DNA of 12,562 bases, taken from IMG/VR virus record IMGVR_UViG_2531839666_000031. One strand, written 5' to 3'. Numbering within the stretch: position 1 is the first letter of the stretch; every line of letters begins with the position of its first letter. This document shows positions 2,929-7,674 of the stretch, piece after piece. Source of the stretch: a virus. Its lineage: Duplodnaviria; Heunggongvirae; Uroviricota; Caudoviricetes. The notes beneath the pieces were generated by a model. That model did not search any database. It had not been told where the DNA came from and saw only the letters and a list, made by a program, of their open reading frames with translations. Made by a program: the position numbers and the translations under genes.

Positions 2929-3358
2929 TATTGCTGTCGTCTGGGATCAGGGTTGTGGTTCCCTGCAACTGAACGGCGCAGATCTTCTGACGGATAACAG
3001 CCTGCTGACTGCGGTCATTATTTCACTGTTTACGGACAGGCGGGCGCTGGATTCCGATGAAATCCCTGACGGCACCCGTGACCGTCGGGGATGGTGGGGA
3101 GACAGTTTCCGGGAGCGCCCCATTGGCTCCCGTCTCTGGCTGTTAAGCCGTGAAAAGACGCTGTCCTCCGTGGTCAGCCGTGCACAGGCCTATGCTGATG
3201 AAGCGCTGGCGTGGCTGCATAAAAGCGGTGTTGCCACATCCGTGGTATGTCATGCCATGCGTGTGGGGCATGATCGCCTTTCGCTTTCCGTGAAAATCAC
3301 CCTGCCGGACGGAAGCAGACATCCGATGATTTTTTATGCTGATATGAAGGGGGAATGA
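2921..3358 (+). CDS. Baseplate protein (Mu gp46-like, GP46 family)
   Basis: ATG at 2921 overlaps the gp45 stop (ATGGCTGA). 146 aa. The longer ORF call from 2708 is an out-of-frame upstream extension overlapping gp45. Confidence 0.65.
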   Translation: MADIAVVWDQGCGSLQLNGADLLTDNSLLTAVIISLFTDRRALDSDEIPDGTRDRRGWWGDSFRERPIGSRLWLLSREKTLSSVVSRAQAYADEALAWLHKSGVATSVVCHAMRVGHDRLSLSVKITLPDGSRHPMIFYADMKGE

Positions 3359-4440
3359 TGCCTTATCAGCCCTTACCACTGGCGCAACTGATCACACAGA
3401 CACAACAGGATATCAGCCAGCGCCTGCCCGGTTCGCAGCCGGGCGTGAATGAAACCACCCTGAATGCCATTGCGTATGCACTGGCGGGTCTGTCAGCACA
3501 GGAGCATGAACATCTGGCCTGGATCTCCCGGCAGATAATTCCGACAGAAGCTGATGAAGCCGAACTCCTGAAACACTGCGCATTCTGGGGTGTCATCCGT
3601 AAACCGGCTTCCCGCGCTGACGGACCGGTACAACTGATGCTGACCACGGATGCAGGGATCACGGAAGGCGTACTCCTTCAGCGAAGCGATGGTGTTGTGT
3701 ACCGCATCACCGGCTCTGCGACCGGAAAAGCCGGAACACTGAATGTTAATGTGGAGGCGGAAAGTGCGGGGCGCGCCGGAAATACCCCGACCGGAACCCG
3801 CCTGTCCTTTATCACGCCACAGGCGGGCATCAACCAGACAGCCACGGTTACCGGCACGGGACTCACCGGTGGTGCGGATGTGGAAACGGTGCCGGAGTTG
3901 CTGTCCAGGCTGGTATTCCGGGTACAGAACCCGCCATCAGGGGGAACACAGTATGATTTTGAACGCTGGGCACGGGAAGTACCGGGCGTGACGCGGGCAT
4001 GGTGTAAGCCTGAATGGCCTGAGGCGGGTAGTGTTGGTGTGACTTTTGTTCAGGATAATAACCCTGACATTTTCCCCGGAGAAGGTGATGTGAAGCGGGT
4101 GGCGGATTATATCCGCAGTCATGATGATCCGGCGACGGGCCAGCCCGTTGGTCAGCCACTTGGGCCGACAATCAGCGTGTTTAAGCTGACCAATAAGCCG
4201 GTGGCGTTTGAGATCAGGATTGTACCCAAAACGCCGGAAAATCAGGCTGCCGTAAAACAGGCATTAACGGACCTGCTTTATAACGAATCGCGGCCGGGTG
4301 GACTTGTATTGCCTTCATCATTCTGGCGGGCTGTTGCAGGGGTGAAAGGACTGGAGGATTTTGAAGTTCGCAGTCCGCTGAAGTCCGTGATGGCCGGAGA
4401 TACAGAGTTGCTGACTGTGGGGGAAATCACATGGCTGTAA
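3355..4440 (+). CDS. Baseplate J-like protein (Mu gp47-like)
   Basis: 361-aa ORF, ATGA overlap with the gp46 stop, typical size and position for the baseplate J/wedge protein. Confidence 0.75.
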   Translation: MMPYQPLPLAQLITQTQQDISQRLPGSQPGVNETTLNAIAYALAGLSAQEHEHLAWISRQIIPTEADEAELLKHCAFWGVIRKPASRADGPVQLMLTTDAGITEGVLLQRSDGVVYRITGSATGKAGTLNVNVEAESAGRAGNTPTGTRLSFITPQAGINQTATVTGTGLTGGADVETVPELLSRLVFRVQNPPSGGTQYDFERWAREVPGVTRAWCKPEWPEAGSVGVTFVQDNNPDIFPGEGDVKRVADYIRSHDDPATGQPVGQPLGPTISVFKLTNKPVAFEIRIVPKTPENQAAVKQALTDLLYNESRPGGLVLPSSFWRAVAGVKGLEDFEVRSPLKSVMAGDTELLTVGEITWL

Positions 4441-4991
4441 CCCTGACCCCGCATCAGCGCGCCCTGTTGCAGTTGCTGCCTGACGGGCTGGCATGGGATA
4501 AGCGGCCGTCATCCGTTCTTGCGGCTTTGTGCCTGGGCCTCAGTCATTCCACGGAGCGTGTTTCCTGGACCGGTAACCAGATGCTGGCAGAACGTTTTCC
4601 TGATTCATCCCGTCTGCTGCTGGAAGACTGGGAGCGTTATCTGGGGTTACCGGAATGTGATATGACCGGCGCAACCATTCAGGAGCGTCAGCGTTATGCC
4701 GGGAATAAATACCGGATGAAACCCTCTCTTAACCGTGAATTTTATATCCGGTTTGCGGCAGAGTTTGGTTATGAAATAGATATTCAGCCATCACCGGATT
4801 CACAGTGGGTCAGTATTGTCACGATTAACAGTGAAACCGGCTACCGGAATATGAATGTGCTGGATGATATTCTCACCCCGCTGCGTATTTATGAGGGTGG
4901 TGCGCTGGAATGTATTCTGAACCGTTATAAGCCTGCATGGCAGACGTTTATTTACGTGTATGCAAACAGCCATGAAGAGGAGACTATTTAA
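4431..4991 (+). CDS. Tail protein (Mu gp48-like, DUF2313/YmfQ-like)
   Basis: 186-aa ORF, start overlaps the gp47 stop, stop overlaps the tail-fibre start (TAATG at 4989-4993); position immediately upstream of the fibre gene as in Mu and e14. Confidence 0.65.
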   Translation: MAVTLTPHQRALLQLLPDGLAWDKRPSSVLAALCLGLSHSTERVSWTGNQMLAERFPDSSRLLLEDWERYLGLPECDMTGATIQERQRYAGNKYRMKPSLNREFYIRFAAEFGYEIDIQPSPDSQWVSIVTINSETGYRNMNVLDDILTPLRIYEGGALECILNRYKPAWQTFIYVYANSHEEETI

Positions 4992-5902
4992 TGTTTCATG
5001 TTGATAATAATTCCGGCGTGGCGAATATGCCTGCGCTGGCACCGGCGCAGAGTAATACCACCACCTGGTTTACCGAAGGTGACGGACAAAAAGGTATCAG
5101 CTGGATTGGTCAGGACTGGCTGAATATTCTCCAGGCCGAACTGCTGAATATTCTGGCTGAAGCCAGTATTCAGCCGGATAAGGCGCAGTTAAACCAGCTT
5201 ACGCTGTCCATTAAAGCCATTATCGCTGCGAATGCCTTTTCCCGGAAAAACAACCTGAAAGAAATTGCTGATGCCGGTGCGGAAGCCCAGCGTCTGGCCC
5301 GTGGTTATCTTGGTCTGGGGACGCTTGCCACAAAAAACAGTCTTGGTCCCGCTGACGTTAATGCCCTGGCGAAGGATCAGAACCTTGCCGACCTGGAGAA
5401 TGCGGAAACCGCCCGTAATAATCTGGATGTTTACAGCAGGAGCGAAGGTGATAACCGTTACCTGCGCAGGGAGCAGAACGGCGCAGACATTCCGGATAAA
5501 GGCGCTTTTATCGATAACGTCGGTTTACGGGAAACGGTAAATAAGGCTGCTGATGCCCTGCCATCGGGTGGAACCGCCGTGGCAGCAAACAGACTCGCCA
5601 CCCCAAGAAATATTAATGGCGTTCCTTTTGACGGAACGCAGGATATCAACATCACGTCAGGAATGACGCAGTCAACCGCAGATGGCCGGTATGTACAGAA
5701 TGTTCAGCTTGGAGCACAGAGCTATCATTCACCCGGAGGCAATGAAATATCATGGAATTACAGCGCACCTTCCGGTTGTATGCTTTCCGGTATTAACGTG
5801 CAGGAAACCGGCTCCCGGTCTGCGGACAATATCGGTGGGGTCTATTATCGCCCGGTTCAGATTTATATTAATAATGCCTGGAGAACGGTAAGTTCAGTGT
5901 AA
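4991..5902 (+). CDS. Tail fibre protein (Mu S-like): constant N-terminal part plus variable C-terminal part currently joined in frame
   Basis: 303-aa ORF; N-terminus MFHVDNNSGV..WFTEGDG..ILQAELLNIL..IQPDKAQLNQL is of the Mu S/e14 Stf type; contains the left crossover site at the constant/variable boundary (..NGADIPDKGAFIDNVGLRETVN..); C-terminus ..VYYRPVQIYINNAW resembles the alternative cassette on the other strand. Confidence 0.8.
   Translation: MFHVDNNSGVANMPALAPAQSNTTTWFTEGDGQKGISWIGQDWLNILQAELLNILAEASIQPDKAQLNQLTLSIKAIIAANAFSRKNNLKEIADAGAEAQRLARGYLGLGTLATKNSLGPADVNALAKDQNLADLENAETARNNLDVYSRSEGDNRYLRREQNGADIPDKGAFIDNVGLRETVNKAADALPSGGTAVAANRLATPRNINGVPFDGTQDINITSGMTQSTADGRYVQNVQLGAQSYHSPGGNEISWNYSAPSGCMLSGINVQETGSRSADNIGGVYYRPVQIYINNAWRTVSSV
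5508..5533. other. Left crossover site for a Din-family DNA invertase (gix/hix/pix-like 26-mer)
   Basis: TTATCGATAACG-TC-GGTTTACGGGAA; about 22 of 26 positions match the recalled gix consensus TTATCCAAAACC-TC-GGTTTACAGGAA; lies inside the fibre gene, centre within the Val codon at 5519-5521. Confidence 0.65.
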
Positions 5903-5912
5903 ACCACAGAAA

Positions 5913-5931
5913 AGGGTGCTGAATGCACCCT
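5913..5931. terminator. Hairpin between the convergent fibre and assembly genes (possible bidirectional terminator)
   Basis: AGGGTGC-tgaat-GCACCCT, 7-bp perfect stem with 5-nt loop, lying between the fibre stop (5902) and the - strand assembly gene stop (5937); T-rich flank on the - strand. Confidence 0.4.
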
Positions 5932-5936
5932 CTGAA

Positions 5937-6458
5937 TTATTCCGGTTTTTCCGGCCAGGGAATCGCCTGGTAATGCCCCTCACTGGCAATATCATTAAAG
6001 TGCATTTCTTTAAGCTGTCGGATATACGCCATCCAGCGCGTCAGCTGTAATTTATTTTCATCGCTAATCATGTCCAGTTTTAATTCTGTTTTCCAGTCAT
6101 CCACGGTTTCGTTGGCTTCCTGGAGCAGCGATGAGCGACGCTTTTCAGCAACCGTCTTCCAGTTTACCGGCACCTTTGATATCAGGCCATCAGAAAACTG
6201 CCAGTTACCGTCAATATTCACACCTTCCGGCAGTTCGTCCACTTCAACAACAGTAAAACCTGCCGGATATAAAGCAGAGACATCTTCAGCAACAGAGCAG
6301 ATAATACCCGTTACAGGCGAAATACAGAGTTTGTATTTCTTTGTGAAAAGCGGGATAGATTCATAAAAATCCCTTCCGTCCTCACTCTGGAAATACTGAA
6401 CATCCTCACCATAGGGTTTGTCTTTCGGGTAATATCGTTTGACATTAATCAGTTGCAT
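5937..6458 (-). CDS. Tail fibre assembly protein (Mu U-like chaperone)
   Basis: ORF 5937..6509. Likely start is the ATG at 6458-6456 (MQLINVKRYYPK..) preceded by GGTGA; the 17 upstream codons are hydrophobic and lack a ribosome-binding site. C-terminus ..HYQAIPWPEKPE matches the conserved Tfa C-terminal motif. Confidence 0.75.
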   Translation of the reverse strand: MQLINVKRYYPKDKPYGEDVQYFQSEDGRDFYESIPLFTKKYKLCISPVTGIICSVAEDVSALYPAGFTVVEVDELPEGVNIDGNWQFSDGLISKVPVNWKTVAEKRRSSLLQEANETVDDWKTELKLDMISDENKLQLTRWMAYIRQLKEMHFNDIASEGHYQAIPWPEKPE

Positions 6459-6579
6459 AAACATCACCATGTAAATCAATGATAAAAACAGGAATAATAC
6501 TATCGCCATATACAGGCAATGCTTGTCTGAAATAACGCATATTTCAGATGCTGGCTGCTGTGTGCTATGCCCCCGTTAA

Positions 6580-6946
6580 TTAAATACTTGCAGCGGATAC
6601 CCAATGCCCATTAATACAATATTGTATCTGTCTGTAATAAACACGGTCATCACCACCACGCATTTCCCAGTCTCCGTTAGTCTTAAAACCGGTAATCACA
6701 TTTCCTGATGACAGGGAGTAATTATATTCCAGTCCGCCGCTTAATGCCTGCGCTCCCAGTCTTACCCCTGTAACATAACGCTGATTGGCCGTTGATTCCG
6801 GCATTCCTGACGTAATGTTTATATCCTGCGTGCCGTCAAAGGCGACACCATTGATTCTGCGGGCATTTGCCAGCCTGCTTGCTGCAACAGCCGTACCGTT
6901 TGATGGCAGGGCATTCGCGGCCCTGTTTACCGTATCCCGTAAACCG
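6580..6946 (-). CDS. Silent alternative tail-fibre C-terminal cassette (Sv'-like, no start codon of its own)
   Basis: Reading the - strand from the right crossover site gives ..GLRDTVNRAANALPSNGTAVAASRLANARRINGVAFDGTQDINITSGMPESTANQRYV..GDWEMRGGDDRVYYRQIQYCINGHWVSAASI-stop with no internal stop; a TGA lies immediately upstream of the crossover site. Homologous to the expressed C-terminus. Confidence 0.6.
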
Positions 6947-6959
6947 AGGTTTCAGGGAT
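6934..6959. other. Right crossover site for a Din-family DNA invertase (near-palindromic 26-mer)
   Basis: ATCCCGTAAACC-GA-GGTTTCAGGGAT, inverted relative to the left site, 55 bp upstream of the invertase start. Confidence 0.65.
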
Positions 6960-7013
6960 GCCGTATATCTGCTTTAAAAGGCCTTTCCATCTCTTTTTAA
7001 GGAAGGTAAATAC

Positions 7014-7575
7014 ATGCTGATTGGCTATATACGCGTATCAACAAATGACCAGAACACAGGTTTACAAAGAAATGCGCTGGAATGTGCAGGATGTGAGCAG
7101 ATTTTTGAAGGTAAAATGAGCGGAAAAACAACGCAGCGGCCGGGACTGAAGCGGGCACTGAAGAAACTAAAACCCGGTGACACGCTGATGGTCTGGAAAC
7201 TGGACAGGCTGGGGCGCAGTATGCGCCACCTTGTTGCGCTGACAGATGAATTACAGCAACAGGGGATAAATTTTCGTAGTCTTACTGACAACATTGATAC
7301 GTCAACCCCCACTGGGGCGCTTCTTTTTTCACATAATGGGTGCGCTGGCAGAAATGGAGCGTGAATTAATTGTCGAACGGACACGGGCTGGTCTTGCAGC
7401 TGCCCGTGAAAGGGGACGAACCGGCGGCAGACCCCGCCGTCTCACGCAGGAACAATACGAGCAGGTCGGGCGTTTACTGGCCGGGGGTGTCAGTCGAAGA
7501 CAGGTGGCACTTATTTTTGATATCGGTCTTTCAACCCTTTATCGTTATTATCCTGCGAGCGTTTCGGAAAAATAA
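7014..7575 (+). pseudogene. Serine DNA invertase (Gin/Pin/Cin/Hin family) with an apparent +1 frameshift in a C5 run at 7306-7310
   Basis: N-terminus MLIGYIRVSTNDQNTGLQRNAL..DRLGRSM is a canonical resolvase/invertase catalytic domain (Ser in VST). The frame ends at 7364, and the conserved continuation GRFFFHIMGALAEMERELIVERT..GGRP.. is in the next frame (7294..7575). Deleting one C from acccccact restores ..DTSTPLGRFFFH... ATG at 7014 preceded by AAGGAAGG. Confidence 0.7.
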
Positions 7576-7674
7576 GACGCTCTCTTTGTTGGGCCTTTAC
7601 TGAATTAACGCAAAATGGCGTTTATCGGTCTGTGGATATGATAATTCAGTTTATTCAGGAACAGGCTGATTATT

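Follow-up and report, generated by a model that had tools for sequence, protein, structure and literature searches.

The closest described systems to the locus analysed here are the invertible tail fibre segments of phage Mu (also SfMu, D108, and P1 C-cin) and the P segment of e14 in E. coli K-12. In these textbook systems each variable fibre part has its own Tfa chaperone: U and U′ lie tail-to-tail in Mu, and e14 has tfaP and tfaE, one per tip. Mu fibre S and chaperone U have been solved as a complex (5YVQ). Tfa proteins are described as binding the fibre through a variable N-terminal domain, followed by a helical C-terminal domain that is conserved (PMC9608196), and one passage of that source, citing North et al. 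2019, states that the N-domain of Mu Tfa binds the fibre. Rac-SA53, whose tail1 and tail2 are the closest phage homologues of the Sv tip and the Tfa described below, has co-directional, adjacent fibre and Tfa genes and no inversion system.

We analysed a stretch of 12,562 nucleotides (the window), which covers the right-hand end of a Mu-like prophage. Its features are as follows.

3355-4440: Baseplate_J (Pfam match)
4431-4991: homologue of Mu gp48 (Phage_Mu_Gp48)/YmfQ (Pfam match)
4991-5902, + strand: tail fibre gene in its current orientation, 303 aa (ORF; stop codon 5900-5902)
4991-5519, + strand: constant fibre part, Sc
5508-5533: left crossover site (gix/pix-like), within the fibre gene, core TC at 5520-5521
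5520-5902, + strand: expressed variable tip, Sv
5520-6947: invertible segment, 1428 bp
5903-5936: spacer of 34 bp with a hairpin at 5911-5933, an intrinsic terminator for tfa on the − strand
5937-6458, − strand: Tfa chaperone gene, 173 aa, 522 bp in RefSeq relatives (PF02413)
6459-6579, − strand: spacer between the Sv′ stop and the tfa start, 121 bp
6580-6947, − strand: silent alternative tip, Sv′, promoterless and Mu S(G+)-like
6933-6958: right crossover site, core GA at 6946-6947
7014-7575, + strand: Gin/Pin-type serine DNA invertase, frameshifted (Resolvase and HTH_7)
7675-9714: SASA/DUF6645 gene, 679 aa, between the invertase and com/mom
10843-11827: com and mom (Com and Mom Pfam matches)

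The prophage has Mu-type tail and right-end genes and varied insertion sites. It is 99.7% identical to the prophage of O157:H7 strain Z1813 up to position 11955, after which the host flank differs, and a host-type ORF on the − strand, judged yeaX-like from its sequence, begins at 11951 (window 11951-12562). Relatives are inserted in puuB, flgK, bcsA, an xdh-like gene, and flgL, a variety of host genes expected for a transposable phage. The SASA gene, named for its sialate O-acetylesterase-like domain, is conserved in all relatives, and small DUF1378 and DUF826 genes come after it. A small + strand ORF at 6785-7000, antisense to the silent tip, is annotated in RefSeq relatives as a hypothetical protein (WP_001497588.1) and is probably spurious. 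We take the prophage to be a member of the Sp18 family of E. coli O157:H7. Sp18 of O157 Sakai was predicted to be intact by Asadulghani et al. 2009 (PMC2669165). The same study found its DNA packaged and attributed Mu-like particles to Sp18.

The fibre and both of its tips are homologous to chaperone-dependent fibres of Mu/P2 type. Fibre residues 1-198 match residues 1-191 of Mu fibre S (E = 1e-43 for that stretch), and the last ~75 residues match the C-terminal tip of Mu S (5YVQ_A). The tips are ~125 aa long. Sv is 70% identical to the tip of Rac-SA53 tail1 and 61% identical to the tip of SfMu gp52, and Sv′ shares 60% identity with the tip of Mu S. The ORF at 5937-6509 on the − strand encodes the sole Caudo_TAP (PF02413) protein in the window (E = 2.4e-18; 67 bits, cutoff 22.1), and a scan of the window with the Tfa HMM likewise gave one match. 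This protein is homologous to Mu U (5YVQ_B; E = 1e-15 over residues 3-147) and is 51% identical to the Rac-SA53 Tfa, tail2, rising to 69% over the N-terminal 90 aa. Based on RefSeq relatives, tfa likely starts at the ATG at 6458 and encodes 173 aa, with 6459-6509 only an extension of the open frame. We rejected the 17-residue N-terminal extension of the 190-aa ORF as coding sequence, because other spacer types have unrelated sequence upstream and the RefSeq start is MQLINVK/MELINVK. A Tfa scan of the genome contigs returned no relative and so gave no cross-species view. Tfa is itself mosaic, its N- and C-terminal halves having been exchanged independently between lineages (P0002/P0004/P0017 and related clusters).

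The layout first reported in the preliminary description was borne out by the ORF map and the single Caudo_TAP match: the fibre gene stops at 5902, and 34 bp further on, past a hairpin, the window's one tfa gene ends on the − strand. An imperfect inverted repeat of 179 nt (5516-5694 and 6773-6951) has the crossover sites at its inner ends. Both crossover sites have CCCGTAAACCGA in common around the core and are inverted relative to each other, the left one lying within the fibre gene. Flipping 5520-6947 in silico fused Sc in frame to Sv′, producing an intact alternative fibre of 298 aa, and placed tfa downstream of this Sc-Sv′ fibre.

The same rearrangement was found among relatives. Two loci (L002 and L012), from two strains of one study with the prophage at the same chromosomal place, had 0 mismatches over 8609 bp after the interval homologous to 5520-6947 was flipped. 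This isogenic pair proves that the inversion is real and fixes the crossover points. As in Din-type systems, inversion occurs in the relatives, based on the isogenic pair and on the presence of both orientations in many genomes, and a serine recombinase of the resolvase/invertase family adjoins the segment. The classical Din-type layout of one chaperone per alternative tip was absent, with a single Caudo_TAP match in the segment. We propose that a Gin/Pin-type invertase flips the 1428-bp segment, which would join Sc to Sv, as in the present state, or to Sv′. Taken as a whole, our best explanation is that the locus is a right-hand host-range switch of a Mu-like prophage, and we consider this account reasonably probable.

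This copy differs from its relatives by small indels. A 1-nt insertion (C) at 7312, mapped against a related locus (L001), breaks the invertase and splits the Resolvase and HTH_7 matches over two frames; in the annotated relatives inspected, the invertase is an intact 561-bp gene encoding 186 aa. With its invertase frameshifted, the segment in this window has probably lost the ability to leave the Sv orientation. In all, seven 1-nt indels separate the window from the Z1813 prophage. At 1612, the loss of 1 nt from a T-run interrupts the gp44/P-like baseplate gene (ORFs 1201-1659 and 1644-2324), which is intact at 1125 bp in relatives. Four 1-nt deletions fall within the first 140 nt (94, 108, 132, and 138), and a 1-nt insertion at 10943, at the start of com, alters its first residues. 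This pattern may reflect error-prone assembly or sequencing errors, or real decay of the prophage. If the indels are real, the segment would be locked as Sv and the prophage would be defective for reasons unconnected with the chaperone.

A fibre gene that faces a convergent tfa could be taken for a damaged Mu-type segment. The preliminary description had raised the option that the cognate chaperone of Sv was deleted, leaving an orientation that may be non-infective. On this reading, a further chaperone gene, specific to Sv, would once have separated the fibre stop from tfa, and the present orientation would yield defective fibres. The tail-to-tail pairs of Mu, SfMu, and e14 and the visible decay of this copy, whose invertase and one baseplate gene are frameshifted, are in line with this idea. 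The 34-bp gap, however, contains no vestige of a second gene. The proposed check, a search for a + strand chaperone gene between the fibre stop and tfa, gave no such ORF in the window, and the relatives have a single tfa as well.

We found the one-tfa layout in at least 209 complete E. coli genomes, counting a genome if a single place covered at least 80% of 4991-7600, either as is or flipped in silico. The segment was in the present orientation in 183 of them and flipped in 26, although with clonal sampling this excess is only soft support for the infectivity of Sv virions. All annotated examples inspected had one "tail fiber assembly protein." In a set of 80 invertase relatives drawn from IMG/VR, the Sp18-like loci all had one tfa, antiparallel to the fibre operon in 11 and parallel in 4, while the Mu, SfMu, and e14 controls gave two chaperones each by the same method. 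Tfa variants 71% and 66% identical to that of the window occurred in the same one-tfa layout, each in both orientations, and in these sub-lineages identical proteins were found in both orientations.

These comparisons leave little room for a deletion. Every relative examined has a fibre-to-tfa gap of 34-35 bp and a single tfa, and the gap and its hairpin are the same in every lineage, even where Tfa is only 66% identical. The orientation that expresses Sv is the commoner one in both the genomes and the IMG/VR loci, and a lineage fixed in it has spread to at least four insertion sites. The suggestion of a non-infective orientation likewise runs against the occurrence of both orientations in nature, as in the L002/L012 pair, and against this fixed lineage with its four insertion sites. 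The comparative data already largely refute a deletion, which we regard as highly improbable. The one-chaperone layout is instead the normal, widespread and conserved design of the lineage.

If no chaperone has been lost, the question becomes which tip the single Tfa goes with. Across all lineages, the tip that lies tail-to-tail with tfa across the 34-35-bp hairpin gap was always of Sv type, at 77-95% identity. The tips upstream of tfa, in cis, were of three unrelated-looking types, with identities of just 29-37% among themselves and with Sv: a Mu S-like type in the window, and a second (Sv′′) and a third (Sv′′′) type in other lineages. The N-domain of Tfa remained 72-97% identical across lineages while these cis tips varied. 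The C-terminal half of Tfa was swapped independently of the tips; between the window and locus L013, for example, the N half is 87% identical and the C half 50%. The conserved module, judged from these alignments, is Sv and tfa converging on the hairpin.

Gene order in other phages also connects this Tfa with Sv. In Rac-SA53 the Sv-like tip is directly followed by tail2, and Sv-like tips also lie directly upstream of a tfa in SfMu (gp52) and in a P2-type phage (H protein). The Rac-SA53 arrangement shows that tips of the Sv type and Tfa proteins of this type occur as partners in nature. Sv′-like tips, in Mu S and PSP3 gp19, are each upstream of a tfa too. Mu U and SfMu gp51 are 91% identical to each other, and Mu U follows an Sv′-like tip whereas SfMu gp51 follows an Sv-like tip, so one Tfa type can pair with both kinds of tip. 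On these relationships, Tfa would act on Sv. The preliminary description had placed tfa in the silent cassette, which is correct by position; by homology and co-inheritance, the gene goes with Sv at least as much.

The best-supported reading is that a single Tfa serves both tips, and we hold this to be likely. Of the two options offered at the outset, deletion or one chaperone shared by both C-termini, the second is the better reading, with indirect support from the comparisons. An argument against a shared chaperone is that Tfa would need to handle tips with only ~30-35% identity to each other.

In a rival reading, Sv needs no chaperone, and Tfa, serving only the upstream tip (Sv′, Sv′′, or Sv′′′), is silent in the present orientation. 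Such a division of labour would fit the position of tfa, which is in cis to the upstream tip, co-directional with it, and bounded together with it by a terminator. It would also fit the antisense placement of tfa relative to the late operon in the Sv state, and the failure of our scans to find a promoter for independent tfa expression. A precedent may exist in at least one P2-like locus (L075), where a glycine-rich tip of another type occurs with an antiparallel tfa, so that mixed switches may exist. A chaperone-independent Sv is harder to reconcile with the Sv-like tips of Rac-SA53, SfMu, and the P2-type phage, which are directly followed by tfa, and with the N-domain of Tfa, which, like Sv, is conserved across lineages that have exchanged their cis tips. 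A further argument against it is a lineage, here called lineage B, that has no cis tip and yet keeps tfa intact in seven diverged loci. On balance, we think it unlikely that Sv does without Tfa.

Lineage B is a derived lineage that comprises Tfa clusters P0017, P0018, P0021, and P0028, from prophages that have neither the invertase nor the silent tip. The gene order is gp48, a fibre gene with an Sv tip, a convergent tfa, 304 bp, and the SASA gene. The deletion runs from the Sv′ stop (window 6585) into the 3′ end of the invertase gene (approximately window 7515) and leaves the 121-bp spacer upstream of tfa. The deletion junction is common to all seven loci, and tfa is intact in 7 of 7. The tfa genes differ by 2 to ~63 substitutions (~28-63 barring one near-identical pair), with pairwise pN/pS of 0.14-0.40 (binomial p from 4e-3 to 6e-13).

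Part of this purifying-selection signal may have been imported by recombination with tfa genes selected elsewhere. Synonymous divergence in tfa reaches 0.33 within lineage B, versus ~4% (by eye) in the adjoining 304-bp intergenic region, and the signal is weakened because tfa in lineage B is mosaic.

Four lineage B prophages, from unrelated strains, interrupt flgK, bcsA, an xdh-like gene, and flgL/laf. Of these four, three have a full set of intact tail genes. Mu-like elements reach new sites and strains by infection, implying that lineage B spread by infective particles after the deletion. An Sv fibre facing a convergent tfa would therefore be compatible with infective particles. The preliminary description had stated that a single-chaperone layout in relatives, infective in both orientations, would make the layout normal rather than a deletion; the layout itself was found, and infectivity follows by inference from lineage B only.

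How tfa would be expressed in the Sv state is less evident. The hairpin at 5911-5933 has a stem of 9 bp (−16.5 kcal/mol, z = −2.9). Only on the − strand does a T-run come after it, making it a terminator for tfa and a poor one for the fibre transcript. Transcription of the late operon probably continues past the hairpin and across tfa in the antisense direction, to the detriment of tfa expression. In the flipped state, tfa would close the late tail operon, being cotranscribed with Sc-Sv′ up to the hairpin. In the present state, with tfa antisense to the late operon, the chaperone would have to be made from a − strand transcript independent of that operon. It would then have a promoter of its own.

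A sigma-70 scan found no convincing promoter upstream of tfa. The sole candidate, a weak 9/12 match, lies within Sv′ at 6650-6621, in a region that has no more such sites than expected from shuffled sequences. The other two spacer types had no sigma-70 site on the tfa strand. Near tfa, we found no site of the Mu C-protein-type late promoter kind (TTAT-N6-ATAA-like or C-box-like), and the region upstream of tfa had no similarity beyond chance to that upstream of com/mom. A GGGGGCATAG motif at the Sv′ stop resembled the mom C-box but was rejected, as it is not kept in lineage B. An Rfam scan of 5400-7700 gave no match. Mu late promoters are activator-dependent and lack a sigma-70 consensus, and by analogy an activator-dependent tfa promoter without that consensus is possible.

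One region upstream of tfa stood out in the comparison with lineage B. An island at 6427-6545 (− strand) is 93-98% identical between the two, while tfa is 45-87% identical in the same 60-nt windows. The island covers ~90 bp upstream of tfa and is flanked by much more diverged sequence. It could be a candidate regulatory or 5′ untranslated region, and it could equally be a recombination boundary. The island also holds a small A/T-rich hairpin (CTGAAATA-TGCGT-TATTTCAG). Separately, in the tfa-to-SASA intergenic region of lineage B (L021, 3747-4051; L032-L035), the deletion junction gives rise to a perfect TATAAT, which lies ~125 nt upstream of tfa. Expression of tfa in lineage B may be due in part to the deletion itself and need not mirror that of the invertible form.

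A further rival is that the chaperone is supplied in trans in the Sv state, either by flipped sister genomes during lytic replication or by tfa genes that other prophages bring to the cell. Tfa is trans-acting by nature, the E. coli hosts of this phage harbour numerous tfa genes of lambdoid and P2-like prophages (with matches at up to 8-9 places in one genome), and the invertase is intact in most relatives. Lineage B, however, has no invertase, and a phage that relied on resident prophages would fail on entering a naive host. Sister copies in the flipped state would, moreover, produce Sv′ fibres, resulting in mixed particles. We consider supply in trans improbable.

Returning to a single Tfa shared by both tips, we tentatively propose a more specific version of it, which we hold as a minority possibility in its full detail. 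Tfa would be a generalist that is expressed in either orientation, is anchored tail-to-tail to its "home" tip Sv, and also matures exchangeable upstream tips, at least three types of which, ~30% identical to each other, have been seen. Transcription in the Sv state would come from a promoter facing the late operon, uncoupling chaperone supply from the fibre operon, and the same design would have arisen in P2-like phages too. If one chaperone does handle tips that are ~30% identical, the matching of chaperone and tip in Mu- and P2-type phages is looser than the textbook picture, which would be useful for engineering the host range of phages and tailocins. The locus also raises the question of how a late structural helper gene lying antisense to the late operon is expressed. 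Annotators should not take the convergence of fibre gene and tfa in these prophages for a sign of damage.

A literature search of limited coverage found no paper on a single-chaperone layout and no report of infectivity tested in both orientations. The locus belongs to a well-known kind of switch, and the one-chaperone variant may be new insofar as that limited search can indicate.

Compared with Mu, SfMu, D108, and P1 C-cin, the locus shares the tail module, comprising gp47, gp48, and a fibre resembling S whose constant N terminus is homologous. It also shares the serine invertase immediately to the right of the segment, com-mom further right, crossover sites of the 26-bp type with one inside the fibre gene, alternative C-terminal tips, and a chaperone homologous to U. 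It differs in scale, as the G segment of Mu is ~3.1 kb (3084 bp between crossover repeats) with long variable parts, whereas the segment here is 1428 bp with tips of ~125 aa. Mu has two chaperones, U and U′, lying tail-to-tail; here there is one, tail-to-tail with one tip. The window further has the SASA/DUF6645 gene between the invertase and com, a position at which Mu has no counterpart. The e14 P segment resembles the window in having YmfQ (gp48-like) upstream, a short invertible fibre segment of comparable length (~1.8 kb), and then the Pin invertase (PinE), and differs in its two tfa genes, where the window has one. Carotovoricin Er, in work ascribed to Nguyen et al. in 2001, reportedly swaps fibre C termini with an invertible fragment of ~0.8 kb and lacks a separate chaperone for each tip; it is a tailocin, unlike the phage locus in the window. 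Its tail fibre inversion system is also cited in a passage of PMC13195805.

Some P2-like loci in IMG/VR follow the same logic. A group of these (L061-L065, L074, L086, and L110) has one chaperone of Caudo_TAP type between two convergent, similar tips, adjoins a Pin-like invertase, and occurs in both orientations; L105 has the same layout. All are uncharacterised metagenomic or prophage contigs, and other P2-like loci have two chaperones. In a further P2-like invertible locus (L075, 2412-5145), the expressed glycine-rich tip (PF21722) is unrelated to the silent tip, and a chaperone-independent tip is possibly paired there with a chaperone-dependent one. The one-chaperone group shares with our locus the order Sc, a tip and chaperone reading toward an opposing tip, and then the invertase. 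It differs in having P2-type fibres, with a tail-collar N terminus and a Gp53-like C terminus, and a distantly related chaperone, and its one-chaperone design appears to be an independent occurrence. Because this group also has one chaperone, "one chaperone per tip" describes the textbook systems and is not a rule.
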